From: Amoebophrya sp. A120
Lineage: Eukaryota; Protista; Dinoflagellata
Length of the DNA: 64,000 nucleotides
Reading direction: 5' to 3'
NCBI GenBank assembly: GCA_905178155.1
Contig: CAJINV010000018.1
Span: 6,479 to 70,478, forward strand
The notes beneath the pieces were generated by a model. The model was not told the DNA's origin and searched no databases. It was given only the letters and a program-made list of their open reading frames with translations. This document shows positions 29,213-61,790 of the stretch, piece after piece. The translations under genes were made by a program, and so were the position numbers. The stretch's first letter is position 1, and every line of letters starts with the position of its first letter.

Positions 29213-29464
29213 TATTCAATGCAAATATGTCCGGGTCTGGAAGAATGTAAGTTTGTCATGCTTGGTTTACATGCCCCTTAAATCTGTAATGCAGAAGCAG
29301 AAAAAACGCCTATTACCTGTCATGCAAAAACGCAATTTGTCATGCGAAAAGCGAAACAGAGAGGAGCTCAAAAAATTGTCATGCGTAGCTGGGTATTGCA
29401 GTGTGCCCACCAATCACAAACTAGCATCACAAATTTCGAGACCCATGCATATTTGCACAGGATA
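29213..29464. mobile_element. Introner (GTCYGGGTCTGGAA subfamily)
   Basis: IR tattcaatgcaaatatg / catatttgcacaggata; TSD cttcg/ctttg; empty site in the paralog near 21710; removal in frame. Confidence 0.9.
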
Positions 29465-31331
29465 CTTTGTGTGTCCCGTCGAAGAAAACTTCCAAACTCT
29501 CCAAAGACCGCACGTGCTGAAAAAACTCGGCCAAATAGGTTCTCATGATGCTGCTGTCGAATCTTGCCTGCGGGGAGGTCTTGTGGAAGTCATCCGGCGT
29601 CAGGAGAAGTTGCAAATGTCGGATTGGTCGAACTTCGTCACCTGGCTGCGTGGGGTGCGGCAGCTTTGCGTTCTGCGCAAGTGCCGCAAAAAAGGTCTGC
29701 TGGTCCTCTACGTCGATCGCCCGCTCAATGCCATAGCAGTTCGTGCCACGGAGGTCCAACCTCACGCTTTCCTCGGCGCCATTCACGAGATCATCCTGCA
29801 GGGATTGCAGATCTTCCTGTATGCGGTCGCCTATCGGAGGCAACAAGAAGTTGAAATCCATTCTCACAACTACCACCAGAAAAGGACAGATCGCGCTCAA
29901 CGATGTGCGGCGCACGCGGTTGAACTACAAGGTTTTGCGGTTCGTCTTCCAAACAGACGGACTGATAGGCACTGTGGCCCGGTTCTTCGGAAAATTCAGG
30001 GTCAGATCCCGGAAAATTTGGGCAGGACACGCCATTTTTCTTTTACGCACATATTACCAACAGATAGCAAAATTCGAAAGGACAGAAAATTCACAATATT
30101 GAGGGCTAGTGTAAATAATCGAGAAGTCGAAAAATACGGACCCGCAGGAAAGCACTTAGTATTTTGCGTTGGTTCCGTGTGTGTGTCCCGAGGTGGATTG
30201 GTATTTGGAACGGGGGTCAATGTGACGGCAGGACAAATGATCCTTTTTTCATGTTCCCGGTGATGATCATCGCGATCTTTTTATTCATCTGGAGCCGAAA
30301 TATGAGTATGTTGCTTCCACCAAGCATGTTTTCGATCTGGTGCGAGAATCCTTGCAGACTGATCTTGCTTCGGCATGATCGTGGTGACCACACGTCGCTC
30401 TGTTCTACACAAAAAAAAGCCATTACCGATTCAGATTGACGCGACTTGACTTTAGATCCCGGTTGTGACAATAAGACTTTGGCCCCGTGCGGGAGCGCGC
30501 AGAAAGCCGCCTCGCGACCGGTGAAAAGCGGCGTTATCTGCAGTGCACAGAACTTCCGTCGCGGCTAATCGACGGGCACAGCTCGCAGCTATCCTATTTC
30601 TAGTAGGGAACAACAAGTTTTCGGCCGACAAATGTCAGGCTGCGAAGACTGCCTTCGTTCGCGTCCAAGAATATGTTGTCCAAATTCGCGTCCATTCGGG
30701 TCTCATTGTCCACATACCACTTTTGGAAGCGTCGTTGACAGCCAAGGTGGGTTTCCGAAAGCATAAAGAGATTAAGGACTGTCATTTCTCTTGAAACGTT
30801 ATGGCTTCATCTCCTCACGAATCTCGCGGAGAAGATCAAATAAGGCATTCTACCTAGCGCTCCACGCACGTTCTGTTCCTCTAATAAGTTGCTCTCCACG
30901 CACGTTCTGTTCATCAAATAAGGCGCTCCAGTGCTGCGCTCTCGTTATTCATTTCGATTCGAATCAAAAAGCAACAACTTTATCTACGTGGCCGGAAAAG
31001 CAACAAAGCAGATGACAAGGGCCGCAGTTGGCTCTCTATACTTCCTAGCTTCAAAACCAATGCAAGTTTCCCTGCTACAACATCAAAATGTCAAAAAAAC
31101 TTGAGAGCTGTGCTTCCATCCTCGCCACTGTTGTCGGTGCGTTGTATAAAAGGCTGCTCGCCCAGTCCGACAATTTAAGCTTTGAAGAAGAGGAGGAAGG
31201 CGAGCTTCCACTGCTCCTATATTTTCACGCACTCCTCGGCGGTTACCGTGTTGTTACCGTGACAAAGTAGAGCCGTGTTTGCGCTTACGCCCCCTCGTTG
31301 GCGGGCGTACGTAGGCGACAAGATCAGCTCG

Positions 31332-34300
31332 TTAAATGTGCCAGATCTTCGTTGGCCCGCTTCGCTTGAGCGCGCCTTTGTCCTGTTGTGTTTCCTGTCC
31401 TTGTTGTGTTCCCTGTTCCTGTTGCTTAGTTCTCTCTTCCTGTTGTGTTCTTTGTCCGTGTTGCAGCGTCGGATCATCGGGGGTCGTTTGTTGTCCCCCC
31501 GTGGTCCTCTGGGTCTTGGTTTGTGTTTGTTCTCCCCCCGTGGCTGGGGCCTCAACTGGAACAGTGGGCGACGTCGTCCCACCAATACATGACGAAGCTT
31601 CTCCTCCCGTTGTTCCACCAGCAGTGCACGTGTGTTGTCCACCGCCGCCTGTTGGCCCGCTTGTAGCTCCACCACCGGAATTACTAGTACCTGCAGCGCC
31701 TGCTTCTGCGCTACCAGTGCCCGTTCCGGCCCCGGGCAGCGCCTGTGTACCAGGCGTCGTCGAAAAAGCCGCGCCAGTTTCTTGCTGGTCAACTTCAGTT
31801 GCCGCACCTGCGGCTGTTCCGGATGAACCGGCTTGGTCCGGTTGGGTAGGAGGTCCTGCTTGTCCCCCGGACGGGGCGGAGTGTGGAATGATAACCGCAG
31901 CTGCTCCTTGTCCTCCCATAGAGGAATGATTAGCACCAACTGCTCCACCTTGTCCTGCCGGAGTGGAATTATCACCGGCATCTTGGGCGGCGAAAGTTCC
32001 CACTTGTAGTCCAGACGATGCGAAGCCTGGGAGTATCGTGAAAGTTCCGCCTGCTCCAGCACTGCCACCACTTATTGTGAGGAATGTTCCCCCCTTCGCA
32101 TATCGAAAACGAGATTTGTGTTGCTGTATTTGAGTACACAACTCGACTTGTATAGCTAGAAGGCCAAGAGATGCAGTTGCTCCCTCATTTGTTGGCAATT
32201 TGTCATGCTGCTTCCCGTTTCCAGTTGCTTCGTATCATTCTGAACACGCAAAGTTTTCCTACACCAGGCAGCACTTACAGTCCACATCTCTTCCCTTCTA
32301 CCATGACAGCGTGACTTGTGATCACAAATAATGCTACACAAGTCCCCCTCTGAGTACGGGGAGGGGGGATTTTTCATTTCGATACCACTTCCGCTGCCTC
32401 TAGAAAAGCCACCTCGAGGACCCGAACTACTAGCACCACCCTGGTGCAGTCCCTCTAATGACTGACTGGCGTCTTCTACCGGAACAGTGCTATGCTCCCC
32501 TGTGCCCCGCACCGCTGCCATCACCGCGCTGCCTGCATCCGCCGCGCTGCCATCCCGCTGCAGCGCGTCGCGGAAGATCAGATCTTGGATCGGCCTGTGC
32601 ACTGCAAATGTGTCCGGTTCTGGAAATTTGTGACGCTCGGCGAAATGCGGATGGCGGAAACACTTCCGAATGCTGCCCAGCATGTCAACTTACCAGAGCG
32701 CTTTCTCTTAGACAGTCCGCATGAGAAGCTGCGTTTTTGCATGACAAAAGAGGAGGCGACTTTTGTTGGTTTGGCAATTCAGATTTCCGACGAATGTCAT
32801 AAAGCTAGCGTTACAAGTTCCAACTTTCCAGATCCAGGCAGTACATGTGTATTGGATAGGACCAGATCTTGGTTGGCCCGCTTCGCTTGAACGCGCCCTC
32901 TCCGCGAATCAGTTTGATTACGTCGTCCACTGATAAGTCGGCAAAGAAGTCCGTCGGGTCGATCAAATGGCTATCTAAATCTTCCAGCTGCCTTCGCAAC
33001 TCCTCGCGCTGCGTGTCCATCGTGACACTTTTGGTGATTCCATTGCTATCTAGGTCGTCGACGTCGGATTGGTGTTGCTGTTCAGCGTCGCAGCCTCCAG
33101 TGGCGGAGAATACATCTTCCTCTCCACCATCTGCAGGAGATTTCCTCGCGCCTATAATTTTCTGCAGCGCGTGCAGCTGCTTCGTGATAACCTGCAGCGC
33201 GTCCACCTGCAGCTGGTCGTGCAGTTGTTGCTTCGTGATAACCGCGCCGAGGGACATCAAATTGTAACTGTGGAAAATCTGCGTGGTTTCATCTTTCATG
33301 TTCTTGCCCCCCGCCGCGAGTTGTTGTTCGTCTTGTTGTTCCCCTATGCCCAGGTTCATCTCGTCTTCCGGACTCACGCTGGCAGCTGGGCTTCCGGTCG
33401 AGTCTGCATCCTGCGGAATTTCATGATGTAGCGGGGCCTGCAGCCCCCGCGAAGCAGATCTACTTCCGGCGAGATGTTGACCAAGAAGCCGCTCATTCTC
33501 CTGCTCCGCCTGCAAAGCGACGTCAATTTGTAATGGTGGAAGGGGGCTGCCGATGCCGTGTTGTTGTAGTGCTGCTGGCTGCAGCTGGTGCTCGTGGGGC
33601 GCAGCCTCATCACGCATTCGCCGCACTACGTCCGGTGTGCGTGAAACTGGTCGCGATGGTATCCTGAGTAAAAACGTACCCACACCAGAGTCAAGATGGG
33701 GACTTTGCAACACAAGCCTAGGAGTTTTGGGAGTCACGCATGACAAGATTCAGTCCGTAAGGTAGTGCAAGTTAGCAAGGAAAGCCACATCACAAATCGA
33801 CCTGCTGATCCTGTTCACAGCATCACAAATTCCAAAACACGATTGGAAGTGGCTCTCATGGGGATGCGCATCACAAATGTCTTTGTCATTGCAAATCTGC
33901 ATTACAACTCTGGGGTGGGTACGTTTTTACTCAGGATAGATGGTGAGCCAGAGCCACTTCCTCCCAAAATGCCGAAGGCGTCCGTTCGAAGTTGCTGAGT
34001 ATGAAATGCAAAAGTATCGTACTCGTAGTAATGGCATTCATGCATTACAAATTTTTTTCTTAAGGCAAATCCGCATGAGAAATTTTATTTCTCATGCTGG
34101 GCTAATTTGCAAATGCATTTATACGAGTACGATACTCTTCCAACGCATACTGTGGGCTGACCTGCAGTTGGTTGGCCCGTCGCTCGGACGGGGAAGGGCC
34201 TCGTCTAGGGGTTCGTGGAGGGGAGACCACTTCGCGCGGCACGGCGGGCCTTTGTAACCGTTGCTCCTCCAAGTGCGGCTGCAGGGACTCGACCCACTCG

Positions 34301-37300
34301 GCGTTTTGCAACGGTGGGGCATCTACAACTGGTTGTACGCCAGAACCACGAGGACCCTCCTGCTGCTGCTCTACAACTCCGTCAACCCGGCCCAGGAGCA
34401 GCTGTTGCTGCTCGTCGCGCTCGTTCCCTTCTTGTTCTTGTGCAGCGCGACTCCGCACTACTTCTTCGATCGACCGGTACCTCAGTCCCTCCCGCTCCGC
34501 GCGGTCAGCAGCTTCAGACAGGGCAGCGCTGGGACGATGCCGTTCGCCCGCACGGTAACTCGGAGGCGGATCATCTTCGCGTGGGGGCGACGGAGGTGTC
34601 CCGGAAGGTAGTACCGCAGGGGATGGGAGCTGAAAGTTGCTGAGGTTGCTGACACTGCCGTGTTCGGAGGTAGTGCCGTCATCTGCCGCTTGGAGTTCAT
34701 CTCCTGCTGGTCGTGCGGGTTGTAGTACAACTTGTGGTCCTCGTGCCATAGGTGGTGGTGCTGGTCCACCCCCAGCGCCTCCCGCTTCAAGCCCGGCGAG
34801 GCACGCTCGCACGTGTTCTGGATTCACGTCCGGCGGTGGAGCTGCACGCCTCACTTGCTCGAGGCCCACAGGGGACAATATCGTCCCGAAATCGTCTGCG
34901 TGCCCCACAACCGAGTTGCCCGCGGAGCCGGTGGCTGACCTGAAACCGCCCTGCTGCTGCTGCGCGTTCAAAACACCACTATCATCGCGCCGGCGGCTTT
35001 CCTGCACCACCTCCTGCATCCGCGCGACCAGTGCCTGGCAGTCTAGTTCCATGGCTTGTTGTCGGTCGTCTGGGTTCCCAAAATGCTCTACGGTTTCCGG
35101 GACAGACAGCTCGTCGTCCTCGCGCTGCCGGAGGTCTTGATCTTGTTGTAGCGGGGGAGATAGTAATGGCGCACCATGTAGTTGGCTGGGGCGATAATTA
35201 TTGATGTCCTCGACTGTTGGCCCGCCTCCAGCAGCTCCGCCGACTGTTGCGACTTCTGAGCGACGTGGACCACCACCTTCAGCAGGGCCAAGCACAGGTG
35301 GTGCCGGTGCCCCCGGCGTGCCTAGAATTTTCTGCAGCACGTGAAGCAGCTGGTCGTGCATCTGTTGCTTCGTGATGACCGCGCCCAGGGACATCAGGTT
35401 GTAACTGTGGAAAATCTGCGCGGGGTAACCCTCGTATAATTTCAGCTTCTCCTTAATCGGCAGCACCAAATCCAGCGGGTGTGATGCGTCAGCTGTGGCG
35501 CCTACTTCTATTTGGGACGACGACGAGGACGACCGACGTATCTCCCGCTGCCTTTGCAGCTCTCGCTTCAGGACCTCGGAAGCTGCCGAGGGCGACAGAC
35601 CACTTACTTCGTGTATAAGGAAGGCCTCCGCCTGACCGGATATCCAGTGCAAAAGTATCGCACTCGTACTCATTGCAGTTATATGCATTTACAAATCTAG
35701 GTGCTACGAGAAATCCACCGCATTACAAATTTTACTCCTCATGCTGAGCAAATTTGTATAAATGCATTATATACGAGTACGATACTTTATTTGCAATGCA
35801 TACGGGAGACGGTCCGCTTATAGAGAACCCAGGGCGACGGAGCCGAAGGAGATGGTGAACTATAAGACGGAAGCTGCGGACCGGAAGCTGCGGACGCAGT
35901 GCCAGCGGTCGCCGGTGGTGCTACCGCTTTGATGGTGGAAATATCAAATGCAAATATGTCTGGAGGTCTGGAAGGATGCAACTTGTGATGCTGTTTTTGG
36001 ATTCTAGGAAAATTTGTATTGCATGACCAGCAAGTGCAAGAGGGGTCCAGTTTGTGCTATAGGGCATTTCTCATGTGGAAGGCGCATCAGGATCAGGAAG
36101 GGTTCTAAAAATCTATGATGGTAGGGCAACATACATCACAGACAATCATGGGTCATGAGAAATATCAATATGCATGACAAGTCTTGCATTCTTCCAGACC
36201 CAGACATATTTGCAGTTGATAGGAAAACGAGGCGACTCGATGCCGCATGGCACCAATCCCGTCGCGGAGGGCGAACCGCAAATTCCCCTCGGGCCGGTCG
36301 GGTTGGATCGTGCTGCCCGCTGAGGTGCCGTCTTCGGCAGGAACAGCCTGCCCAAACGCGCTCAGCTGCGCGCGTCGCAGCTCCTTTATCGAAATTTCCA
36401 AGGCAAACCCGTGCGGCTTGTCGGCTCTTTGCTTCAGTATAGATGAGGAACTAGTAGGGGAGGTACCAATAGGCTTATTGCCAGCGGCTTGTTGTTCGCC
36501 CTCGTTTGCATGTGGATGTTCACAAAAATCTCCAGCAATGTATCCCTTATCCAGTTCTTGCTTCGAATAAATGCTACTTGCACTTCTATGACCAAGAACA
36601 GCAGAAGCACCAGCTGCTCCCGATAGTGCACTGCTGTCTGCACTTCTCCCGCGCCGGAGCGCGGGTCGGTCGGGCGTGGCAAAAGGGTCACGTAGTTGAT
36701 GACTGTGCGGATCATGAGTCGGTGTTGTACCTTGCAGCTCGTTGTGCTTGCCATAGTGGGCTATGCCATCCACTAAAGTAGCCGTTTCTCGAAGTCCACT
36801 TACTGCTACAACTCCGGCGTCGCTCGCACTGCTGGAGAGGCCAGCGGCCGATGCGGCAGAACTAGGAATGTTGAAGAGATTGCGTGGCTGCTCCTGCTGC
36901 TGCGCATAGTCCGGTCGGGGAGGCAGCTGCGGCACAACTAGTCCTGGAGGTTCTGCAGGTTGTAGTTCTTCTCTTGTGGGAAAGGCGAATTGCGTTGGCT
37001 GTTGATGGTGCTGGCCTCGCTTATCAAATGTAAAAGTGTCTGGGTCTGGAAGGATGCGAACTTGTGATGCGTGTTGCGGATCATACAAAAATCTGTGTAG
37101 CGTGACTTGCAAAAGATCCCCATTTCTAGCCATGCCGAGGGGGCATTTCTCATGCAGAATAGGCATCACCAAGGGGCTGCAGAACCTGTGATGCTAGGCC
37201 CTGCATTCGAGACTTGGCTGAGCTTGGAAAAACTGCATGACAAATCTCAGATTCTTCCAGACCCAGACATTTTTGCATTTGATATCGCTGCTGCAATTGC

Positions 37301-47159: not shown

Positions 47160-50042
47160 TCAATGTGCGAGATCTTGGCTGGCCCGCTCCGCTTGAGCAC
47201 GCCTTTGTCCTTGTTGTGTCCCTTGTCCCTGTTGTGTTCCCTGTCCCTGTTGCGTAGTTCCTTGCTCGTGCTGTTTTTCTTGTCCCTGTTGCAGCGTCGG
47301 GTCATCGGGGGTCGTTTGTTGTCCCCCCGTGGTCCTCTGGGTCTTGGTTTGCGTTTGTTCTCCCCCCGTGGCTGGGGCCTCAACTGGAACAGTGGGCGAC
47401 GTCGTCCCACCTGTAGCTGATGAAGGTCCTCCTTCCGTTGCTCCACCAGCAGTGCACGCGTGCTGCCCCCCGCCGCCTGTTGGCCCGATTGTAATTCCAA
47501 CACTGGAACTACTAGCACCTGCAGCACCTGCTGCTGCACTACCAGTGCCCGTTCCGGCCCCAGGCAGCATCTGTGTACAAGGCGTCGTCGAAACAGCCGC
47601 GCCAGTTTTTTGCTGGTCAACTTCGCCTGGTTCTTGTAGCGCAGAGCCAGAAGAAGACCAAGACCCCACGCCGGCGCCAACAGAAGGAGAAGATATTGAC
47701 CTCGTTATTTGTCTCCCAGTTGCCGCACCTGACGCTGTTCTTGATGCGTCGGCTTGGTCCAGTTGGGTAGGAGGCACTGCTTGTCGGGACGGGGCGGGGC
47801 CTAGAACGATAATACCAGCTGATCCTTGTCCTCCCGGAGAGAAATTATCAGCACCAGCTGCTCCACCTTTTCCTGCAGGAGTAGAATTGTCAGCGGCATC
47901 TTGGGCGGCGGTAGTTGCTGCTTGTAGTCCAGACGACGCGGGGCCTGGGGGCGTCGTAGAAGTTCCCCCTGGTCCAGCACTGCCACAACTTCTGCCTCCA
48001 GAAGAACCACCTCGAGGGCCCGAACTACTAGTACCACCCTGGTGCACCCCCTTTATTGACCGACTGGCATCTTCTTCTGGAACGACACCATGTCCCCTCG
48101 TGATCTCCGCGCTGCCTGCATCCGCCGCGCTGCGATCCCGCTGCAGCGCGTCACGGAAGATCAGATCTTGGATCGGCCTATGCACTGCGAATGTGTCCGG
48201 GTCTGGAAATTTGTGACGCTCGGCGAAATGCGGATGGCGGAAACACTTCCGAATGCTGCCCAGCATGTCAACTTACCAGAACGCTTTCTCTTAGACAGTC
48301 CGCATGAGAAACTGCGTTTTTGCATGACAAAAGAGGAGGTGACTCGTGTTGGTTTGGCAATTTAGATTTTTGACGAGTATTCGCCCAAAGGTAGCACTTT
48401 TGCAGTTTCCAACTTTCCAGCTCCAGGCATTACATATGTATTGGATAAGACCAGATCTTGGTCGGCCCGCTTCGCTTGAACGCGCCCGTTCCGCTAATCA
48501 GTCCGATTACATCGTCCGGAGATAAGTCGGCGAAGAAGCTCGTCGGGTCGATCAATAGGCTATCCAAATCTTCCAGCTGCCTTCGCAACCGTTGTGCATG
48601 TGCGCTCCTCGTCACGGGCTTGCCCTCAAACTCTTTCTCCTCGCGCTGCGTAGCCATCGTGGCACTCTTGGTCCTTCCATCGCTTTCTTGATCGTCGAAG
48701 TCGGGTTGGTGTTGCTGTTCAGCGTCGGGACCTCCACTGGCGGAGAAAAAATCTTCCTCTTCACCATCCGCAGGACATGCCGCAGCTTGAGCACCGCCAG
48801 CGGCCGAAGAAGCCACATTCCCCCACAGCAGGTCCTTTTCTCCTTCCAGGAGCTCAATTTGCGGCAACCCTGCAGCAACCGTCTGTGATTCAACCCTTGC
48901 CGGGCTCACAACGGCTGCCGGCACCCTTGCACGATCCAAAGCAGCCGCTCGCCCGTAGTGCTGCTGAAGTCCTGCTGCTGCATCTGTTGCTTTCTCGGCC
49001 GAAGCCGCAGCTCTCCTATGTAAAAACGACCCCGCCCCAACCTCACGATGGGACTTCTTGTACCACACAAATAATTCCGAAGGCTCGAAAGTAAAAAAGT
49101 GACAAATTTTTCCGCCGCAATGTGGTGCAGGTTAGCAAGGACAACCGCTTAACAGGGCAATCTGCGTTTATGGTTTACAGCATCATAAATGCCAGAACAC
49201 GACTACGGAGGCCTCTCAGCATAGAGCTGCAAACCCAAACTGTATTGCAATGCATAAGGAGCTGAAGTCTGAGTGCTGTATTTCAGTGCTGCTGCGTCTC
49301 TCTTTTTGCAAAGAGCAAAAACCAGAACTCAGGCCTCGGCTAGAACTGGTGCGGCACGTGGGTGGGAATGCGCGCGATGCAAGTGCTTCCGTAGCTGTAA
49401 ACGCATACCTGTATGACAAGTCTGGGGCGTGGCGTTTCTACTTAAGATAGCAGCAACTGCTGCTGTACCATTCCCAAGATGAGCCGCGCTTCTTTCCAAC
49501 CCAGAGTCGACGTCTTCTGCATCTACACCTCGTTGCGCCTCGTCCGAGTCCAAATAGCCCTCGGGCTCAGTGGCCCGATCATCGTCAATCCAAGACAGAT
49601 TGGAATCGGTGTCCTCTTTGCCTGCCCGAGCGTTTATATTGTTCTCGAGGAAAACTTTCTGCTGCTCCAGCATGTCGGCGTCGGCGGTTCGAGCGCCAGC
49701 ACCGACCGGCGGTGGGTGGTTCAGCTCGAGCCCTTGTGGGACCACGGAACCGGCTCCGCCCCCCTGTCCTGAAGAGCTGGCGGGCTTCTCCAGATCGAAA
49801 ACTGGGCCTTCATGCGGGCCGCTGGCGGGCTCGACTGGGTGCGGCTTCTCATGAGGAGCCTCCTTGCCGAGCTGCAGTTCTGACGGCGACCCAGAGGCGA
49901 GGGCAAAGGGCTTGGTGACTGCTCGGCCGGTGAAGAAAGAACCACATTCGCCCTCAAAGTAAAGAAACACACTGACAGCGCTCGCCAGATTTGCCAGCAA
50001 CCGGCCGCACCTTGTTTTGCTGCTTTCCCCGATGATCCTCAT
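47160..50042 (-). CDS. Low-complexity protein sharing the N- and C-terminal modules of the giant gene but lacking the RNB region
   Basis: ORFs 49329-50042, 48430-49068 and 47160-48266 join in frame after removing introners 49012-49449 and 48179-48447. Confidence 0.75.
48179..48447. mobile_element. Introner (paralogous to 32596-32858)
   Basis: Same position and near-same sequence as the 32.6k element. Confidence 0.82.
49012..49449. mobile_element. Long introner (related to the 33660 subfamily)
   Basis: Perfect TSD gcagc; IR tctcctatgtaaaaacg..gcccca / tggggcgtggcgtttctacttaagata; in frame. Confidence 0.85.
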
Positions 50043-52799
50043 TTCGTTCCTGCTTGTTTCAGGAAACGGGTGTACTAGTTTTGGCTGTTACTATCAAAGT
50101 TCGATGCGTAGAAGTACTTGTAGTCGCTTAGGTTGGTGCCTCTCGTAAAGAAAAGCTGAAGAGGGGAACAGCAAGGCACTAGCTGGCCCCACGCTTTTGT
50201 TTGTGTTTCAACAGAGGGCTGCTCTTGCTGCTAATATTTCGATCCTAGCTGAGTTTTGGTATTGTACTTGCTTCCTCCATTCCTCGGAAACACCTCTTTG
50301 CTATCCGCCGCCTTGTTGTATCTATGCGGGCTCGCTAAAAATGAATGACAGGCATTGAATATCAACAGAAACACAAGCTTCGGGGGCACAAGAAATCGAG
50401 TCACTGTGGGGGGGGGTAAGGGCATGGTAGATAGGTTTTTGGACCAGTAGGCGCATCAAATGAAATGGAGTTTCAGGTGTGTTGCGGTTTGTATTTACTT
50501 CATCTGGTAGTGGAAAAAATTTCAAATCACTAACAGCAGAGGCCAGCGCATCCTCGTAAAGGCATTCGCTTTTGCTACCTCAGGGCGAGGCAGAAAAACG
50601 GTGCACGTTTCGGGCTAAAAGCGGCGCTTGCAAATGATCAAAGGTGGCGAGAGCTTGCAGAGCTGTGCTCGTTTTGAAGTGCGGGTAGATCAATATTACA
50701 GAACTTTCCAGGAAAGACCTGGCAACCTGATCTCCCACGAGCGCAATGCGGTGAGGGTTGTTTCCACACGCTTCTCTTTTCGGTAGTTTTACGTCTGGAG
50801 ACCTAGACGAGCACGATCTGTGTTTTTTGTGTTTTTCTTAATCTTTTCTAAATTCTTATTGCGCACGCCAACGCGCTCAACAGCTCACATAAACAGGGGC
50901 AATTCAGCCACAACTTTCTTCTTCTTCGATCTCGGTTCTCTGCGAGGTTTCGTCGCAGCAATAAAACCTCACTCGGCCAGAGATGAACATCGGCCACGCG
51001 AGCCGCTTACCAATGCTTTAAGCTGGACGCTTTTCTGCTCGGAATTCTGAAAAAGATCTTGCGCAGCTGGCAGTGCCAGACCGAGAGATAGTGTCGCAGT
51101 TGTAGTTGTTCGGCAGACTTCAATACGTAGATAGGACGAATCAGTTGCAGACGGTCGCGCGTGTCATCTTTACATTGTCATCAGAATTCGCGCATCTGCA
51201 GATAAGAAACATAACGCCAGCAACATGGAAAAGCAAGGATTGCCTGTCTTTGCGGAATTTGCAAACGAACTCTGTTGCCGTTTTTCAAGCGACGGCATGT
51301 CGCGTCTTCGTAAGTCACGGCGGAAAGATTTCGCGTCAAAGATGTGCGGCAACGTCGTGATTTCCCACAATCTAGTTATTGAAGAGGGTTTACAAGCTTA
51401 GTACATTCTACAAACTGTCAAGACCACTAGAGCAGCGCGCGCGCGGTGACCTGCTGTTGCTGCGAAAGCGTGAAACGAGGTGAATGGGCTAAATCCCACT
51501 TCTTCCAAGCTTCTTCAGATATGAGTGACTGCGGCCAAAAGGTGAGAATTATTTGAAACGAAAGCCAATATATGTATGTATGTAAATCTCGCGACAGCTT
51601 TATTGATATAATTTACCCCGGAACATCCACAACGGACGCATCTGCGTCGTTTCAGTGGCCCTGGTAAAGTTCTTTTTCTGGAAAGATATAGAGAGAAGTT
51701 CGCAAAACGGCAAAACCAATAGCGCGGCCGGGGCTGCTGACGCTACGCTCACTGCTGGGAGTTTGAAAGCAAAAGCCTTTTTGTTCTGGTGCCTCATCAT
51801 CAGAAATTATGAACCGCGAAGAACGGGCCGCACCAACTAAAGATCGAGATCGAAAGAACTTGGTCATTGCCTACAACTTAAAAGTATATTTTACAGTGTA
51901 ATATCAAATTTGAAGTCTGAGTAGATCACTGTAGCCGGAGCGAACTGCGTGGCTTTGTGATGCTAGTCCTGTAAAAGTATATATCTATGAAAGCGACTAA
52001 ATAGAGAAAACTAGGGGCCTTTTGAGGGCTAGCGCCGATGACACCCCTGAAAACCAAAAAAGTAAAGGTCTTGCTGTTCGGAACGGAGTCAGAATATCGG
52101 CATCGTGCCCTCGTGGAGGGTTGATCTTGTTGGGACGCGCGTAGCGCTGATGAATAAGTAAGACCTTTAGTGTGGGCCGTAGTGTTGTGAAAGGCAGAGC
52201 TTGATGGTAACGCATTATATTGCCGCCTCAGGGGTCGAGCTTGGAAGGGCACAAAGGAGCTCAGAGACATACTATCGTGTGAAAGGGTAGCCTAGATGAG
52301 GAAGCTGCATATCTCTGCAGCAGGTCCAGGTGCTCTGACGTGCTGAGCTTACACGGCCACGATGTAAAGCAAAACGATAGAGATCAGAAATTGTTCAGAG
52401 AAATACAACAAAAAAGTCAGAAAATATTCCACAAGCCCCTGCGGGAAACTGAAACCCCTCGCACGCCCACACCTAGGGCCCAAGGAGGTCTTACTGGCGT
52501 TGTGGTAAGTTTCAGAACGCCTACGCAACTCCACGTGGTCTGTTTGAGAAAATTCGAAGAAAAGAGGAGATGGGGGGCAGAGAAGTATAAGGCGACCGCT
52601 TCTGCAGTAGACACTACAAGCCAGCACGGACTCTAGTGCAGAAACACTTCTGTTTCTTCACCCGAGGAGGTGCTTCTGGTACTAAGTACTGCTACTCCCT
52701 ATTCTACTTCCCCCGTACGACGCTTTTCTTCCCCTTTTTTCTCATTTTCGATGTTTCTGGCACAACGGTAGCAAGAGTGGGACACTTTGGTCGCTCCGG

Positions 52800-54412
52800 T
52801 TAGTAATCTTGGTACCCGCGAAGCATCTGTAGTTTTTCCCATTCCTCGGCAGTTTCCGGCGGCGAAAAAGAGGAGCTGGAGTAATCGTGTGCGGCCATGG
52901 GGGACGGTGGTGGCGGTGGGCCACCCAACATCGCTCTGGTCCGGTGGGGAAGGAGGCTTTCAGGCACAACAGGATTCATTTCCCTAGGACGGCCAGCAGG
53001 AGCAGCAGCTTGTGTACTCTTTGCGCCAACAGAAGCTGCTTCGCGGCAGCGCTGTTCTTCCTGCTTGGAGTCTTTAGTTTCCATGTTATCCACCGGGCCT
53101 TCACCGGGTTGAACGAAAGTGGCCTCACTGGGGTACGGCGACGGTGGAAGCTTTGAGCAGTCGTCGGGCCGTTCTTGACCAACACCTTCAAATTGACCAA
53201 ACAGCAAGACACCAGAGCTGTCACTCATTACCGGCGCCGTGGCGTTCGCGTATATATCCTATAAAATGCAAACTCGTCTGGGTCTAGGAAGTTGATGTGC
53301 CGCAACTCTCTAATTGGTGGGTACTGGAATACACAACCACAATGTGGTTGTGTATGGGCGAATGTGACATTCGCCCATACCAAATTATTGAGCTGCTACG
53401 TGTTTCTTGCTCCGCATCGCAGATTCTGTTTATTTTGGGTCACATGTACCATCAAGAGGGGTTCTTTGTGCATGCACGTGCATCACAGACATCAGGACGA
53501 TACCGGCCAAGCGTGACAAGTCTTGCATCTTAAGTCTTCCAGGCCCAGACAGGTTTGCACACGATACATCTTCGTCGTGTGCCACAACTCCTCCACCAGC
53601 TAATGTACCTGATTGCTGCCAGTGCCAGGGCAGTGCCTGGCCTCGACACACGTTCTTTGGCTACTTGTCAGCCACCGCCTGTTCGTGACAGGGAGTGCGA
53701 GACTCATTTTCGGAGGAGTCTAGCTTGTCCCAGAGCAGGACAACGGGCGCCTTTATGGCCGGGGAAACTTGCTCTTGCGCGCCTTCAAATTGCTGCTGGT
53801 AGTGGTCGTAGCGTTGCCACGGCGCAGCTTGATGGTTCTGGTCCACGAGCCGCGTCCTGGGTGCTACTGTTCTTTGGTAACCGACCGCCGGGCCGTGGAG
53901 CGAATGTAGTAGTTCATGCTGACACGATAACATCATGCCGTGCCCGTCGTGTTGGAAGAACGGGTCGGCGGGGGCTGCTCTGCCACCGCATTGTTCGCGT
54001 TGCCCTTGCAGGTGCAGCTGTGGCACTTGCTCTACCGGCGCATTTTCTCCAGCCTGATCTTCCGCGCGTCTTGCAGGATTCTTTTGTTCGTTGGATATTT
54101 TCTTCTGGGCCGCGGGGCCGCCCTGCTTCATAGTGATGATGTAGCAACGCCCCTGCGCTGGCCGTCCTTTGATATTCTCCTCGCCCGGCTTCTCGTCTGC
54201 CGCTTCATACACACGGACGCGGGCGGGCACGCCCTCGACCGTGCGGAAGGTTTGCACGGGTGGTGGAGGGCCGGCCTTGCTGCAAGGGGCCTTGGTCTGC
54301 TTCCGCGCTCTGTTGCCAGGTAGAAAAAATCTGGCCGCGGAGGCGGGCGGGAAATTGTCGGACCCGTGCTCTGGGACTGCTGCGCAGCCAGCTTCGCCGC
54401 CGCCTGGAGCAT
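52800..54412 (-). CDS. Hypothetical multi-exon low-complexity protein (boundaries uncertain)
   Basis: ORFs 53661-54257, 53430-53651 and 52800-53228; the last two join in frame across introner 53260-53566. Confidence 0.45.
53260..53566. mobile_element. Introner
   Basis: IR tataaaatgcaaactcgtctggg / cccagacaggtttgcacacgata; diverged TSD tatcc/catct; in frame. Confidence 0.8.
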
Positions 54413-54683
54413 CCGCGCCCCCTCGCTTCCAGTGTGTCCTTGGCCGGGCCGGGGAGCGATTTTTTGGTCCCGGGCTGAGCGCCGGCCGCGCTAGCTGGTC
54501 CCCAGGATCGACGTGATCCCTGTCCTGCCCCTCAAGCAGGTTCTCGGCAATGTCGGGCGCGTCTATTACACTGTCAAACTCAAGGACGGGGCCGATCTCC
54601 GAACTTCTTCTCGCGGAGGCCTGGTAAAAAATTTCAAAATGGAAAGTCCATAGTATTTCGAGTAAGCGTATGTCTGCCTGTTG

Positions 54684-54901
54684 TATCCAGGAAAAAAACT
54701 GTGTAAGTGTAACTTTGCAGGAAGATCTAGATCAGCATCACAAATTCGTCTTGCATTACAGGAAAGACCTGTCATGCGTAGCTCGTACTATGTGGAAACG
54801 CGTACGCAAGTGGCCTATGATGCAAATCCAGCATGACACATGTGCCAGTTTTGCATTTTCTGTGTCCCAGACTTACACTTACACAGTTGTTTTCTTGCAT
54901 A
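54684..54901. mobile_element. Introner (AACTGTGTAAGTGTAA subfamily)
   Basis: 30-bp IR tatccaggaaaaaaactgtgtaagtgtaac; TSD tgttg/tcttg; host frame not resolved. Confidence 0.85.
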
Positions 54902-55121
54902 TCTTGATGCTTTCCCGCAAAAAGCACACATGGTCCACGAGCAATCCTCCTGCTCATCTACAAAAAATGTGGGCGAAAAAAATGACAAAGAGCAATCTTC
55001 GAGCTGGCCCAACAAAAATCTGCAAGAAGATTATCGGCCAACTTGATCCATCGCAAGATTCTCAGCTTTTCTTGATTCCAGGTCGCACCACTAATCTGTC
55101 TATAGACGAGCATCAATTAAA

Positions 55122-55556
55122 TTATCGTACCTGCGGCGCATCCAGGACGACAGGCTCTTTTCCCGCAGGTGCTTCCTCTACAGCAGAGCTCGCAGCAGCT
55201 CTCGTGCAGCGTCCTCCTCTGTCATTGGCCGGAGGCTGCGATGCTGTTGGCATGCCATAAGGCCGGCTTTTTCGCTCTCCTTGTTCTCGCCCCCTCGGTA
55301 GCATACCATGGCAGGCGGCCTTCCGGTGTTTGCCTTTCCGCACTGGGTTTGACGCGCTATGTTCATTTGGTACTTGGAAAAAGCGATGCCGCCGAACGTC
55401 GAATTTTACCTTCACCGACCCCTCTCTCGGGATCAAATCAGAGTCCTGCAGATCGTAGTATCTGCTCGGGTTTTTGTTCCTATTGCATTGCACCACAAGG
55501 ACCACCGCGACGAGAACGGCCAGGGCGGCGAGAAAGATCGCGACCCCGGTTACCAC
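55122..55556 (-). CDS. Exon with a transmembrane segment (VAIFLAALAVLVAVVLVV)
   Basis: 144-aa ORF with a strong hydrophobic helix; gene limits unresolved. Confidence 0.5.
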   Translation of the reverse strand: MVTGVAIFLAALAVLVAVVLVVQCNRNKNPSRYYDLQDSDLIPREGSVKVKFDVRRHRFFQVPNEHSASNPVRKGKHRKAACHGMLPRGREQGERKSRPYGMPTASQPPANDRGGRCTRAAASSAVEEAPAGKEPVVLDAPQVR

Positions 55557-55898
55557 CCAGGCAAGCGTCGCTACCTCCTGCTGTGCTTGGTAGTAACTCT
55601 GGGCGAATCAAAGGAAAAAAAGCCAATGCCCGGTAGTCAAATAAATTTCACTAAGTGCAAAGATGTTCCACTTGCCTCGAAGTTTTCGCGCCATGACAGA
55701 AGAAGACAAAGGCTGGTAGCTTGTTGTCGTGGGAAGCTGTGGAAACTAGCTTAGGTAGCGGCTTTTGATAGCGAAAAGAGCCACTGTAGTAACTTAAGAC
55801 GCAGCCCATCAGGCTAGCGCCACGCTAAACTGCAGGCAAATATCTTTAAACTAAGTACCCAGTGGCTGCTCCTTCCCCACCGCCTTTTTGCGACAAGC

Positions 55899-58800
55899 CT
55901 ACTCATATATAAGTGAGGACTGCACCAAAAAAAAAACTTTTGGAGTTCGGGCAGCGCAAGCCATTTTTCCGCATGATAAGCGAAACCGCTCGGACGTGAA
56001 TTCAAGGGCAGTGCGGTTTCGTGCGATTGCCTCTCGGCAGACCTCGTCATCGTCACGCAATTCGAAATCCAGATGCCGCAGCGCCCGGCCGCATCGCCGC
56101 ACTGCAGCCAGGCCCAGCTCCCGGTCCCGCTGCAGTTCCGAGGAAGCAAACCTCATAGCGACACAGTCGCGACTTGTCGCCGGCCCGTGCCGGCCCTCGT
56201 TGCCAGGAACAGCGCTGTCATCTTCGTTGTCAATCGCTGAGCGAAGTACGTCTCGATTCCCCCGTAAGCGCTCGGAGGCGAACTCAAGCATTGCGGGCAC
56301 AGCTGCAATATCGAATGCAAAAGTAGAGTTTTTGCCTTTGTAGTAGTTGCAGTACTGCTTGAAAAGTCTATTCCCTAATGTATACATAGCTCCTCAACAT
56401 GACAAGTCGAATGCTCAGTGCGAAAAGCTTTTGCATATCATATGTAACGGCGATCGCAACAAGATTTTCATCGTCCCGCAGCCGCGGGGATGCAAACTCG
56501 AGGTTGTGCGCGACGTGCTTTACTGCGGGAAAAACAATATCCCCATGGTCCTGCAACCGGGTTGAAGCAAACCGGAGAAGCCCGAAAACGCGGAGAGCTT
56601 CCTGGCTCTCCTTTTCTGTGCCGGTTGCTTTGGGAACTTCCTCGAACCGCACGGCTTCTAACACTATGGGGAAGCTGTCGCGACAGGCCTCGCTGGCGTG
56701 CTCCAGGGCTGAAGGACTTTTTCGGATGCGATTTATCCATCGCAAATATGTCTGGGTCTGGAAAGTTGTGATGCTGCTTTATGGAATACGGAATGACAAT
56801 GACCAAAGTATGCTTATGCAGCCAAGCATGACAGATTTTTGAGTTGTCCGGTGTTGCGTAAAGCGAGTAAAAAGTTGCGCTTCTGCATGACAAATAAGCA
56901 GCACGATGTCGGGAGTATGATAGCACACGCATTCCAGAGTTGGGGAGCATGGAGTTTAGAATTACAGGTCTCGCAATCTTCCAGACCCGGATACATTTGA
57001 ACTGGATAAGGTCCCAGACGGTCTCAAAATGTTCGCACAGTGATTCCGGCTGGGCAGTTTATGCGTTGCAAAGATGTCTGGGTCTGGAAGAGTCGCGCGG
57101 GGTTTGAAGGATGGCGCGATCTGTAATGCGTCATTGCGATTGGTCAGGGTCAGTCTGTCATGCGTTTTACGAATAAGTGTGAATCTGCAACAAGCCTCGT
57201 AAAACTTGAAGTTTTCCAAGGCTTCTTGCAGATTCTGATCGATGGCATTGCGCAACACAAACGCCAGCTCTCCGGACATATTTCCTATGGATACAAGTCT
57301 AATGGGAGCAGTCATCGCAGCAGGAGCAACGTGGGAGCCGATCATGCTGATGCTCCTCCCGGGTGTCTTAGAGCCGTCGGAATTGTGTGGTGGGGTGATG
57401 ATTGTCCTGTGGGCGAGCGGGCTGGTTTTTGCGGGTAGAAGAAGAGGCCCATGGCCATGTGGTCTACGTCTCGGGGGATGCTGCTGCTGCTGCGGCACTG
57501 GGCCACCAGGCGCATGATGTGGCCCAACTCGCGCTGGGGGCTGCTCAGGCCCATGATGCGCCCCACCCCGTGCTGGTGGAGGCTGCTGCTGCACTCGGCC
57601 AGCTACAAGACCGGGCTCCTGGTGCTGTTGCGCCGTGGCTGGGGCCCCAACTGGAACAGTGGGCGATGTCGTCCCACCTGTTGAAGGCACTGAAGCTACA
57701 CCTGTAGATGGTGAAGCTCCTCCTCCCGTTGTTCCACCAGCAGTGGACGACGTCTGCTGTCCACCTCCACCACCGCCTGTTGGTCCGCTCGCAGTTGTTC
57801 CACCGACGCGAGGAGTACCTGCTGCACCAGTACTAGTGCCCGCCGTTCCGGCCCCGGGCGACAGCTGTGTAGCGCCAGGCGTTGTCGAAACAGCCGCGCC
57901 AGTTTGCTGCTGGTCAACTGCACCGGGTCCTGCTTGTGGTTCAGACGACGCGGAGCCTGGGACTACAGTAGAAGTTGCCCCTGGTCCACCACTGCCACCA
58001 CTTCTGCGTCCAGAAGATGAACCACTATCACGAGGACCTTGGTCGTGCCCCTCTATTGACTGACCGCCACTATCTGCTTCGGGAATAATAGGGGAGCTGT
58101 GAATACGCTGGCCGGTAATGTTGTGAAACGGAAAAATTGTTGTAGTACTACACCCATTAGTTGTACCAGCAAAAAAAAAATGAATTGAGGTGTTTCTTAA
58201 AGATCACATTAAAATCCGCAGCACAAGTCTATTTATTTTTCTGGTACAATTATGGGTGTTGTACTATTTTTTCTGCATCGGATACGCATCGTGCGTCGCG
58301 TCGGGCCCGCCAATGATGGCATGGATGCGCAAGGAGCCCTCTGGACCTGGAGATGTTGATCTAGGACCCACCTCCTGTTCCTCTCCAGTCTCTGGCGGCA
58401 CGACCGGCGGAGGCACTACAGGCATCGTCTGCGTCTGCGCCCCCTGGTTGGCGGTGCTACTGGTCGGACCCCCAGAAGCAGTTCCGCCTGCCCCGTCCTG
58501 TCCCGCCGCCGCGCTGCCATCCCGCTGCAGTGCGTCCGGCAAGATCGGATCTTGCATCGCTCTTGGCGGCGGTGCGTGAGCTGCACCTTTGGCGGCAGCG
58601 ATAGTCGTGTTTGCTCCCCGATTATTCTCCTCGTCGAGGGCCTGCGCTTCTTGCTCCGGTCTGCGGTTGACAACGACCGAAAACACATCATCGAACGAAA
58701 GCGATGCGTGATCTTGTTCTACTCTAGTGTGCTGCTGTTGCAGCTCTTGTTGTAGTCCTGCCTCAGCATGATCCTCACCGGACCCCTCTCCTGCTCTTCC

Positions 58801-61790
58801 CCCGCCGGCAGCGCCCACCCGCGCGAGGCTGAGAACCCGCGGAAAACTTTGGCCGCTCTCCTGTATCACAATGAAAAACCCCCCCCTCCCCATATCAAAA
58901 CGGAAATCTGTGATGCGGGATTTGTGTACACAAATCACATTTGTCTTGCAGGAAAGCATTGCACACAGATCGCAAGCCCAAGGGGGGCCCTTTTGGTGTA
59001 GGGACCTAGTCGATGGCAGACGTCTGCCCTGTAGGCCTTGCAGCATTACAAACCGCCTGCATGTAATCGCGGCGGACTCTCTGGATTTGCCTTCTGGCAA
59101 GACAGGCCGGATTTGTGGTCACAAATCTGCATCACAAATTTTCAGGGCGACATGTTTTAAATATGGGGAGGGGGGATTTTTCCTTGCAATATCCTGGTTG
59201 TAAGGTTTGTTCGCGTGGTCCTCGCGGGGCATTTCTCGTCGCGAGCGTTTTCCGCCATCATGGGAGGAGAGCAGCACCCCGACTGTTTTTCCAAAATTCG
59301 CAGGATTCTCGGCGGCTCGTGCTGCGAGCACCTCCGGGGCGGTTACGGGGTCAAAAGGAAATTCTGCCTGCGACGCGGCCACGTTGTCCAGGATCTTCCT
59401 CTCCACAAGCTGCTGCTCATGGTCCTGCACGGCTTGTTGTAGTTGCGCCGCCGCTGCTTGTTCCACCATGTGGTCGACTTGGGCCGCGCCGGTGGTGGTA
59501 CTATTATTCTCTTCCCATTCTTGCCTGAACCTGGCAAGTCGCTTGTCCTGGATCAGCTGCTGCTCCCTCTGCTCCTGATATGGATTGCAAAAATGTCTGG
59601 GTCTGGAAGATTAGAACTTGTAATGCTAAATCTGAATGATGCAAAAATCTGTGCTGCGTGAGTGCCAAAAGCTGTCCGCTTCTGACCAAGTTGAGAGGGA
59701 GTTTCTCATGCAGGAGAGGCATGATAGAGACCTCAAAGAATCTGTCATGCTGGGTTTCGCATTCCAGACCTCATGGGTCATGGAAAACCTGCATCACAAA
59801 TCTTGCAATCTTCCAGACCCAGACATTTTTACATTCGATACCTGATCCGGCGTTTTTATCGCGCCCCCGCGGACACTGGTGTTTGGGCTGCTGGTGCGGT
59901 GTGGACGAGCAAACACGTCCGGCTGTAGCTCCCTCTGCAGCGTGTCAAGGGTCCTTCGATTCAACGTCGAGGACTTCTGTGGAGGTCCTAGATCTAGTGC
60001 ATCTGGCACACCAGCTGCTGCAGGAGTTCCGCTCGTAGTTTGCCTGGATCTTGCTTTCGTCCTTGAGGAGGTGGCAGCACCTGCTGTCGCAGGAATTGTT
60101 GTCGCCTGGACCACTCCTCGTTGTTGTTCCTCGAGCTGCGGTGTCGTGGCTAGTGCAACCGTTTATCAAATGCAAAAGTGTCCGGGTCTGGAAGAATGCA
60201 AACTTCTCATGCATATTTTCCATGCCCCATGAGGTTTGGAATGCAGGACCTAGCATGGCAGGTCCTGCGACGTCTCTATTATTCCTATCCTGCATGACAA
60301 CATGCCTCTAAACTTGTTCAAAAGTGGACAGCTTTTGGTAGTCATGCAACACAAATTTTTGTACAATCCAGACTTAGCATGACAAGTTCGCGTCCTCCCA
60401 GACCCAGACATATTTCTTCCCGGCTTACAACCCGATTATTCTCCTCGTCGAGGGCCTGCGCTTCTTGCTCCGGTCTGCGGTTGACAACGACCGAAAACAC
60501 ATCATCGACCGAAAGCGATGTTACTGACGTCGTCTGCAACAAAGTGTCCGGGTCCGCGTAACACAGGCTCAGCAGTGTGGTATCCCTCAAGAGTGGGCCC
60601 GCGCGTGTGTTTACCGGAGAAAAAAACGTTGGAGGTAAATGAAATCGGACATCAATCCGGCGATGTGAAGATGTAACCGGAGAAAAAAACGGAGGTGGAA
60701 CGTCAGAGGATGGATCCGGAAAATGTGGAACGTTGGAGGTAAAAATGAAACGCCAATCTTCCAGCGATGAGTCTAGAAAACCTTGGACGCCCGCATCGCC
60801 AACCAGCCTGAGGTTTAGCATGTCCGAGAACGAAATATTCACTGACACTATAGGGGCACCATCATGATTATCTGCTCTCCCCATATTTGTTCGAACGAAG
60901 TTTGCCGTCTCGGGGGAAGGCAAGTCGTGGAGCACCCGCCACTTTCCGTCAGCATCGTGCCGCCAAGAGGCAGCCGACGGGAATTTTCTTCCAAGACGAC
61001 TTATCCAATTCCGATCGTCTTTCCAATATAATGTAGCTCCATTATCCGTCATACGATGAAATGCGGGCCACCATTTATATCCATTACGCCTGAGCATGCG
61101 GGCAACAGCCAGGACGACAGGCCAGTGTCTCAGGCTCTGCTCGATCTGTTCCGGCCACGTCATGGACTGGGGATCCAGAATGGAAGGTTGTTCCTGCGGT
61201 CTAGCTAGCTTAAACTGAACTTCGCACCAACTTGCTCTCGTGCTCCGGTTCTCGCGAGAGGCCTCGACGCCATGCGATCTGGCTGCGCACCAAACGGCTA
61301 GGTGGATAAGGAGGACGCGCTGCCACCAGTGTGACGCGTTTCGCACCAGCCATCTTCTCCCCGACCATGTCATTTTTCGCGACCTGAAGAACCCAATGGG
61401 CACGCGGAGACCACGAGCGGATATCGGATTGATGTTTGAAGCCATCCTAGAACCACTTATCGGGGTATGCATTGCAAATGGGTCGGGGTCTGGAAGACTT
61501 CTATATTTGTCTTTGTCACGCGCGTCGGACATGACTCGGGATACCCACGAAAAGGTCCTCTGGCCTGTGATGCAACGACGCAGTTTGCCATGCGAATAAT
61601 GCGCAACACATAGCAGCCCGACAATTTGCCACGCTTACTTAGCTGTGTATTGCAATACTTCATTCTTACCGTTCCCTTTCAGCATGACAACCTTCCAGAC
61701 CCAGACACATTTGCTGTCGATATTGGCTGGCGGATCCAGATGGTGCTCCACTGGCACCGTCTTCGCCTGCTACTTGTCTTCGCCTTTCTT
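55899..61790 (-). CDS. Chimeric multi-exon protein ending in DUF4116-like repeats
   Basis: C-terminal repeats ALEHASEACRD, LEFASPRLRDDENLV, LEFASERLRGNRDV, MRFASSELQRDREL. Frame restored across introners at 56309, 56734, 57060, 58864, 59579 and 60164. The junction near 58.1-58.3k and the 5' end are uncertain. Confidence 0.6.
56309..56442. mobile_element. Minimal introner (134 bp) inside a DUF4116-like repeat
   Basis: IR tatcgaatgcaaaag / cttttgcatatcata; TSD tgcaa/tgtaa; removal gives LVAIAVT-AVPAMLEFASE. Confidence 0.88.
56734..57008. mobile_element. Introner
   Basis: IR with GTCTGGGTCTGGAA; TSD diverged (cgatt/aggtc); removal +5 nt gives FETVWDL-IRKSPSALEHASE. Confidence 0.82.
57060..57293. 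mobile_element. Introner
   Basis: IR tatgcgttgcaaagatgtc / gacatatttcctatggata; TSD cagtt/caagt; in frame. Confidence 0.82.
58122..58284. mobile_element. Probable degenerate introner (AT-rich, 26-bp internal IR)
   Basis: tagtactacacccattagttgtaccag vs ctggtacaattatgggtgttgtacta; right end tgcatcggata; left end unclear. Confidence 0.55.
58864..59191. mobile_element. Introner (poly-C TIR subfamily)
   Basis: Perfect TSD tcctg; ~31-bp IR with aaaaaycccccctccccatat; in frame. Confidence 0.92.
59579..59840. mobile_element. Introner
   Basis: Perfect TSD cctga; empty site in the duplicate at 43486-43490; in frame. Confidence 0.95.
60164..60421. mobile_element. Introner (duplicate of 44066-44330)
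   Basis: Near-identical sequence; TSD ccgtt/ggctt; in frame. Confidence 0.8.
61466..61722. mobile_element. Introner
   Basis: IR tatgcattgcaaatgggtcggggtctggaag / cttccagacccagacacatttgctgtcgata; TSD poorly conserved. Confidence 0.8.

Follow-up and report, generated by a model that had tools for sequence, protein, structure and literature searches.

The window analyzed here, a 64,000-nt stretch of the genome of Amoebophrya sp. A120 in whose numbering all positions are given, carries between 29213 and 61722 a set of short elements with inverted ends, all of whose host reading frames lie on the minus strand. A position-weight scan of inverted ends found 22 two-ended elements of 134–438 bp (Table 1) and three damaged ones, of which two, at 44066 and 60164, have lost their outer right end and one, at 58122, has a decayed left end; several element families recur inside the window. 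A preliminary description, made from the sequence alone, had counted about 25 elements in the same size range and had read them as transposon-derived introns, and the count holds. Its TAT...ATA ends are present in 19 of the 22 (the terminal triplet is off at 32596, TGT; 49012, TCT; and 44570, GTA), and its inverted repeats of 15–32 bp are general, with the most decayed elements falling below 15 bp. The terminal consensus over the 44 ends is TATCCAATGCAAAAA, of which the best-conserved parts are TAT (positions 1–3, kept at 0.93–0.97) and AAA (positions 11–13, kept at 0.89–0.95).

The flanks of the 22 elements repeat each other over 5 bp, with a mean identity of 0.80 at that length vs 0.18–0.35 at 2–4 and 6–10 bp. 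The 5-mer is perfect in nine, and all nine perfect 5-mers named previously are present. Pairs of the form TAT-N7-AAA...TTT-N7-ATA, 100–500 bp apart, occur 18 times in the window, 7 of them with a perfect 5-mer and 10 with at least four of five bases matching; 200 approximate dinucleotide shuffles gave a mean of 0.5 pairs and never a perfect 5-mer. For four of the 22, alignment within the window finds a paralogous site where the element is absent and the 5-mer stands once, evidence of insertion with duplication. When the window was scanned more generally for inverted repeats with a 5-mer, dropping the TAT requirement, no second family emerged convincingly, and the hits at 1–29 kb score only 8–10. 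The first 29 kb hold no paired element despite many long minus-strand frames, and only weak single ends (e.g., 19284, 7688 and 16609 within 1–29000), and the next 33 kb hold 25 elements.

The reading frames give the first indication of how the elements behave in their hosts. Removing each of nine consecutive elements together with 5 nt leaves 2,186 stop-free codons running from 40047 to 31332 on the minus strand; that these nine rejoin in frame had been claimed before. Over all 22 elements, removal of element plus 5 nt does better than plus 3 or plus 4 at 18; the four without such a win are 32073 (open under plus 5, with a longer overlapping frame), 53260, 54684 and 61466. This test alone cannot separate plus 5 from plus 2 or plus 8, which the RNA-like contig and public gene model described below do. 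Retention of the element breaks the frame in all 19 clear-frame cases, by an in-frame stop in 17 and a frameshift in 2. That every element interrupts an open reading frame, as first proposed, is demonstrated for 19 of the 22, the frame test giving no decision at 53260, 54684 and 61466. The gene with the nine elements also contains two ordinary GT-AG introns. Two tested exons of its 2,186-codon frame have no Pfam match, and one of its exons (34156–35634) has no homologue among proteins of 864–2465 aa; the whole gene is probably longer than this search range. At the damaged element 44066, deletion to 44330 plus 5 nt is in frame with a repeat matching at 4/5 (CCGTT/GCGTT), so splicing may persist in an element with one end, and chance could also give this result.

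Four sequencing runs (X1, X3, X9 and X10) were aligned to 28900–48800. X3 is taken as RNA-like on an automated guess backed by internal signs, namely a skipped GT-AG intron and one zero-depth bin, and its junctions are deduced from contig pieces rather than seen at the level of reads. One X3 contig (record 11) has 135 nt between 35634 and 36222 where the genome has 587; as 135 = 587 - 162 - 280 - 10, this single contig is short of two elements plus exactly 10 nt. X3 records 11 and 12 share a 30-nt overlap on the assumption that element plus 5 is lost at both 37022 and 38165, another X3 piece (record 13) starts exactly at the GT-AG intron border 41227, and X3 depth, counting the locus’s own letters, is zero at 33748, 35963, 37219 and 43555, all of which lie inside elements. 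The DNA-like run X1 has a depth of about 40–80 outside elements and up to 268,070 summed in element bins, and its contigs cross four element borders unbroken at depth 41–49 (records 1, 3, 4 and 8). The raw RNA runs X9 and X10 gave 13 and 4 reads, respectively, all partial and none on host exons; X9 and X10 (2026) reads at 37253–37287 match element ends only and have foreign flanks, so the same end sequence is present at other loci in those samples.

The preliminary attribution to Amoebophrya was right, since a gene model of strain A120, CAD7970675.1, maps exactly onto the window: all 808 aa are placed in 7 exact blocks, from 58023 to 53930. At elements of 234, 275 and 134 bp it skips 239, 280 and 139 nt, which is element plus 5 in each case. 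Farhat 2021 (PMC7789003), cited here from the available part of its text and supplement, reports that the ends of A120 introners (introns belonging to repeated families) consist of TAT and, after seven variable bases, three or more A, that direct repeats of 3–5 nt stand at their borders (the legend of Fig. S19 gives 5 bp), that A120 has 29,850 repeated introns and that its non-canonical introns average 240 nt. The same source counts 66,565 RNA-supported A120 introns, 65% of them non-canonical, derives its gene models from transcript alignments, and finds nearly all spliceosome proteins and U2, U4, U5 and U6 kept, with U1 not detected and U11, U12, U4atac and U6atac likewise not detected. The window elements lie in the A120 genome in repeated families, and have TAT-N7-AAA ends and a 5-bp repeat; those covered by X3 record 11 and by three junctions of the gene model appear to be removed from RNA at non-GT-AG boundaries. 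They are almost certainly the published introner elements of this strain.

In the available part of PMC7789003, strain, ends, similar length, non-canonical boundaries and the presence of GT-AG introns alongside all agree with the window, and three window elements are themselves introns of the public gene model; nothing categorical there separates the two sets. The difference lies in the borders, where the published repeats are 3–5 nt with a variable or unknown splice position and those of the window are strictly 5 bp, with four junctions that fit one cut point. The removal of transposon-derived introns as element plus 5-mer, which the preliminary description had inferred, is supported by the X3 contig, the three gene-model junctions and the four empty paralogous sites; as far as that text goes, it is the description of A120 introners already published. 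The observation is real and its interpretation correct. As the system was published in 2021, the window contributes no element of a new kind.

Table 1 Elements, ordinary introns and host frames in the window
Feature	Positions	Strand	Flanks	Remarks
Element 252 bp	29213..29464		CTTCG/CTTTG	Empty paralogous site 21676-21740
Element 312 bp	32073..32384		CCACT/CCACT	Empty site 47960-48017; X3 contig piece stops 32066
Element 263 bp	32596..32858		CGGCC/GGACC	Left end TGT; 89.5% identical to 48179, same insertion in paralogue
Element 279 bp	33660..33938		GATGG/GATGG	Inverted repeat 31/32 bp; X3 depth 0 at 33748 vs 74 at 33339-33550
Element 150 bp	34000..34149		CTGAG/CTGTG	
Element 162 bp	35641..35802		CCGGA/CGGGA	RNA-like contig confines cut to registers 4-6
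Element 280 bp	35942..36221		GGAAA/GGAAA	X3 record 11
Element 263 bp	37022..37284		TCGCT/TCGCT	X3 piece ends 37016
Element 148 bp	38165..38312		ACGTG/ACGTG	X3 piece starts 38313
Element 253 bp	39640..39892		TGGTC/CGGTC	
Ordinary GT-AG intron 228 bp	40044..40271	minus		Same gene as nine elements; frame kept
Ordinary GT-AG intron 415 bp	40813..41227	minus		Same gene; X3 record 13 piece begins 41227
Element 252 bp	43522..43773		GACAC/GACAC	Orientation reverse to 37022; empty site 59842-59906
Damaged element	44066..44330			Outer right end missing, left end preserved; 97% identity with 60164
Element 167 bp	44570..44736		CCAAA/TCAAG	
Element 269 bp	48179..48447		CGGCC/AGACC	Decayed ends; X3 contig (record 15) enters element: retained, or DNA
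Element 438 bp	49012..49449		GCAGC/GCAGC	Left end TCT
Element 307 bp	53260..53566		TATCC/CATCT	
Element 218 bp	54684..54901		TGTTG/TCTTG	Public model has a single intron, 54621-55130, here
Element 134 bp	56309..56442		TGCAA/TGTAA	139 nt skipped in CAD7970675.1, registers 3-5
Element 275 bp	56734..57008		CGATT/AGGTC (2/5)	280 nt skipped in CAD7970675.1, registers 1-4
Element 234 bp	57060..57293		CAGTT/CAAGT	239 nt skipped in CAD7970675.1, registers 3-5
Decayed element	58122..58284		no matching 5-mer	Right end intact, left end uncertain
Element 328 bp	58864..59191		TCCTG/TCCTG	
Element 262 bp	59579..59840		CCTGA/CCTGA	Empty site 43461-43520
Damaged element	60164..60420			Duplicate of 44066
Element 257 bp	61466..61722		CGGGG/TTGGC	
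Host reading frame, 2,186 codons after removal of nine elements + 5 nt	31332..40047	minus		
Host gene model CAD7970675.1, 808 aa, DUF4116 repeats, 7 exact blocks	53930..58023	minus		

Large genes that evolve fast and are rich in repeats form a tandem family in the region 31200–60400, where upstream regions are duplicated at about 45000–46400 and 50000–51200 and the only Pfam domain is DUF4116, at 55902–56393. The elements 32596–32858 and 48179–48447 represent one insertion in two paralogues, so this insertion predates the gene duplication. The longest reading frames of the window also all lie on the minus strand, a bias in agreement with the co-oriented gene blocks described for Amoebophrya in the available literature. 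Two paralogous genes at 17667–18815 and 63304–63999, about 80% identical, belong to an Amoebophrya-restricted family. Five homologues and no Pfam domain were found for this family; the frame at 17667–18815 has a relative in strain A25 at 67%, and CAD7970658.1 of A120 clusters with its 98%-identical protein.

To see the elements outside this locus we used a 30-letter end pattern, which matched 173 loci, all in JACKZZ01 contigs and from 11 of the 64 parts of the collection, and had no match in viral contigs. These loci hold the same element families at 70–95% identity and do not match the host genes of the window. Pairing their ends without using the flanks gave 276 distinct related elements of 94–481 bp, with a median of 262 bp vs the published A120 mean of 240 nt. 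The 5-mer is perfect in 222 and matches at 4/5 in 35, a perfect 6–10-mer occurs in none, and the 222 perfect duplications comprise 174 different 5-mers and so show no target consensus. In the frame test, applied to the 178 with enough flank, plus 5 is best in 55, plus 3 in 24 and plus 4 in 15, with 20 ties and 64 without decision. Intron phases are biased in the related contigs, at 33, 17 and 14 of 64, but this bias was rejected because it is not repeated in the window (5, 7 and 7 of 19). Pfam domains in 6 of 84 exon pieces place elements within KIN17, SNF2-helicase and DNA-ligase genes, and the split genes read on in frame past the elements; the only species-named match of the SNF2 gene is to A25, at 55%. 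The element in this helicase gene (L020:3809-4133) has an imperfect duplication, CTTCT/TTCCT.

In being short, with terminal inverted repeats (TIRs), a fixed 5-bp target-site duplication (TSD), no coding capacity and, for four of them, empty sites accompanied by duplication, the elements have the features of miniature inverted-repeat transposable elements (MITEs). The mobilizing transposase had been said to lie outside the window, and indeed none of its 24 long frames matches a transposase Pfam family (23 match no Pfam family at all), nor was a transposase found among the 84 related exon pieces, 28 unpaired ends or viral contigs. Two longer copies (L033:632-1465, 834 bp, and L072:3862-4492, 631 bp) have perfect 5-bp duplications and extra internal sequence, with longest open frames of 137 and 85 codons, respectively. 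One A120 family with integrase-like frames (family 38) is listed in the available part of Gozashti 2025 (PMC12130899).

Among the A120 families of that paper (Dataset S2; 23 of its 58 A120 rows), most are called “TIR DNA” of unknown superfamily, many measure 150–340 bp and about half have non-canonical ends. The same rows differ from our elements in their automated TSD calls of 2–6 bp, vs 5 bp here, and in mechanism labels such as “co-opt both” or “carry 5' co-opt 3'”, whereas the duplications here have no GT/AG enrichment. In 13 of the 14 supplementary files of PMC12130899, none of four window motifs occurs. The introners of Micromonas pusilla, Aureococcus and Symbiodinium, as covered in the available parts of PMC9860276 and PMC11282704, are likewise non-autonomous TIR elements with target duplications that leave the protein unchanged; those elements carry one canonical site and take the other from the duplication. 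Here, by contrast, 19 of 22 window and 60 of 64 related elements have no GT/GC-AG in any register (it occurs in the other 3 and 4), and position 5 of the duplication is G in 17 of 64, which is no enrichment, so canonical sites are not recruited from the duplication. The canonical-introner arrangement, with GT/GC and AG supplied by element or TSD, is thus not that of these elements. According to the available part of the genome paper on Amoebophrya sp. Kv, introner elements are restricted to part of the genus.

The elements occur in both directions. Of the 64 related elements 46 could be assigned a strand, and these divide 22 vs 24, and in the window members of one family stand in opposite orientations within minus-strand genes (37022 vs 43522; 29213 vs 39640). 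As both orientations occur in open frames, the signal is probably the symmetric ends, which are predicted to pair with a mean probability of at least 0.7 in 14 of the 22 elements.

Where the two copies of the duplication differ, the number of bases of the upstream copy left in the exon, which we call the register, can be constrained. The RNA-like contig allows registers 4–6 at 35641, where the permitted intron ends are GT-CG, TA-GG or AT-GT, and the gene model allows 3–5 at 57060, 1–4 at 56734 and 3–5 at 56309. Only register 4 fits all four junctions, which suggests an intron of the form N-TAT...ATA-NNNN, cut one base before TAT and four bases after ATA. Homology at the SNF2 element gives a register of at least 3, and the duplication mismatches in related contigs number 7, too few for placing the cut. 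The paralogous pair 32596/48179 has one and the same downstream 5-mer and unlike bases at position 5 of the upstream copy, a pattern compatible with a cut after base 4. U at +2 is typical of spliceosomal donors, and N-UAU(G/C) resembles positions 2–5 of yeast GUAUGU and the U12-type RUAUCC donors. The second base is T in all nine “predominant” A120 motifs of Table S4 in the available supplement of PMC7789003, which agrees with register 4 and which aligner preference could also produce.

A second shared feature lies inside the elements. The 6,188 bp of elements contain the motif CAT[GCT]ACA[AG], read on either strand, 55 times and the remaining 57,812 bp of the window 7 times, an enrichment of about 73-fold. 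The motif is present in 23 of the 25 window elements (shuffled mean 1.2) and 268 of the 276 related ones, is missing from both GT-AG introns, and its copies often lie 30–45 nt inside an end and face each other. Our guess is that it is a binding site of the transposase or of a splicing factor; the available published text on A120 introners contains no description of it. Beyond what that text gives, the strict 5 bp, the lack of a target consensus, the use of both orientations, the rarity of GT/GC-AG registers and this internal motif are apparently additional. It is an even question whether one fixed, orientation-blind code, in which the paired TAT-N7-AAA ends, perhaps with CAT[GCT]ACA[AG], set both cuts regardless of the flanks, governs removal; if so, the published “variable splice sites” would reflect an artefact of aligning across the 5-bp duplication, and an insertion in either direction would be a functional intron immediately.

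Taken as a whole, we read the elements as non-autonomous DNA transposons that are likely spliced out, along with one 5-nt copy of the duplication, by a modified spliceosome lacking U1, and we give this complete chain a probability of roughly 0.58. Insertion itself is seen in the 5-bp duplication, the lack of a target consensus, the empty paralogous sites and the high copy number; a transposase or integrase encoded elsewhere would make a 5-nt staggered cut at the TAT-N7-AAA ends. Removal is seen at a few junctions, where element plus 5 nt is gone from RNA-like contigs or the gene model and kept in DNA, with the consequence that host codons are restored. The two symmetric ends, paired as a stem, would mark the cut points, and the four junctions point to an intron N-TAT...ATA-NNNN with U at +2. 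The catalyst may then be U2, U5 and U6 with U1 replaced by a new factor, as proposed in the available text of Farhat 2021 (PMC7789003). Such a U1-less spliceosome is slightly favored as the catalyst. Rfam families, including the self-splicing group I and II introns, have no match at gathering score in the 64,000 bases. We found no later paper that resolves the A120 removal mechanism in a search that left most subscription papers, including Roy 2023, outside its reach.

Several observations weigh against this account. One X3 contig (record 15) extends 102 nt into element 48179, and element sequence of other loci is abundant in X3 (a depth of about 1,100 at 37275), so that either removal is incomplete or the run holds DNA. 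CAD7970675.1 skips 54621–55130 in one piece, ignoring the ends of element 54684, and the plus 5 product of the SNF2 gene exceeds two homologues by one residue, perhaps because of a footprint or because a codon was duplicated later. As to the cut point, three of the four limits on the register derive from a single gene model and not from reads, the paralogue CAD7974163.1 has at 56734 the L of register 5 and not the R of register 4, and at position 2 the empty paralogue of 29213 agrees with the downstream copy, whose base there register 4 would place in the intron. End-to-end pairing is predicted to be weak in 5 of 22 elements (0.04–0.14), including 56309 and 57060, which the model splices. The lack of G at +1, of a terminal AG and of strand asymmetry is unlike the ordinary spliceosome, and no transposase was found in the window frames or related pieces searched or, in the available text of PMC7789003, in A120.

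In the strongest alternative, removal is non-spliceosomal: the terminal stem is recognized by an endonuclease, which may be a domesticated transposase domain, and the cut exons are sealed by an RNA ligase, a scheme already suspected for euglenid nonconventional introns. Orientation independence, symmetric ends and absent conserved terminal dinucleotides all suit such a cut-and-ligate mechanism, as does the terminal stem predicted in most elements. The staggered cut gives U at +2, which suits a spliceosomal donor instead, and two of the five elements that fold poorly end to end are nevertheless spliced in the gene model. Euglenid nonconventional introns, in the available parts of PMC12501133 and PMC11282704, are also a majority non-GT-AG class with paired ends and border repeats, and according to the latter they have TIRs and TSD-like repeats and leave as circles without lariats. 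The Euglena code (available part of PMC12501133) reads N3CDG...CH'GN5-6|R, the exon starting on a purine, while the window elements have TAT-N7-AAA ends, recent high-copy families and a fixed 5-bp duplication. In tunicates, on the other hand, a changed spliceosome removes transposon-derived non-canonical introns (available parts of PMC11282704 and PMC13326754). The donor-like N-UAU(G/C) together with the near-complete spliceosome of A120 leads us to prefer the U1-less spliceosome, and we regard cut-and-ligate as possible and distinctly the less probable of the two.

It is very improbable that the elements are ordinary MITEs that mostly are not removed, their host genes being dead or spliced elsewhere. 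Such retention would accommodate the X3 contig that enters 48179 and the plentiful element sequence in X3, the lack of a Pfam family in nearly all window frames, the rearranged and duplicated state of the region (44066/60164) and the many undecided frame tests in the related set. Against it stand the codons open across nine elements, X3 record 11, the conserved KIN17, SNF2 and ligase genes that are split yet in frame, and the large published set of RNA-supported, mostly non-canonical A120 introns (available text of PMC7789003). Developmental DNA excision like that of ciliate internal eliminated sequences, with RNA copied from edited DNA, would be expected to show transposon-like symmetric ends, exact loss of one duplication copy and orientation independence, and is less probable still, as the X1 contigs that run unbroken over four element borders at single-copy depth argue against a common excised DNA form in that one DNA-like sample; an event confined to one life stage is still conceivable.

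These elements offer a handle on the way in which tens of thousands of introns lacking GT-AG ends are removed in a eukaryote that has no detected U1. If they apply genome-wide, the fixed cut point, orientation independence and shared motif would turn a vague description into a testable rule, and that rule would explain how transposons could invade exons at low cost, including those of KIN17, SNF2 and DNA-ligase genes.

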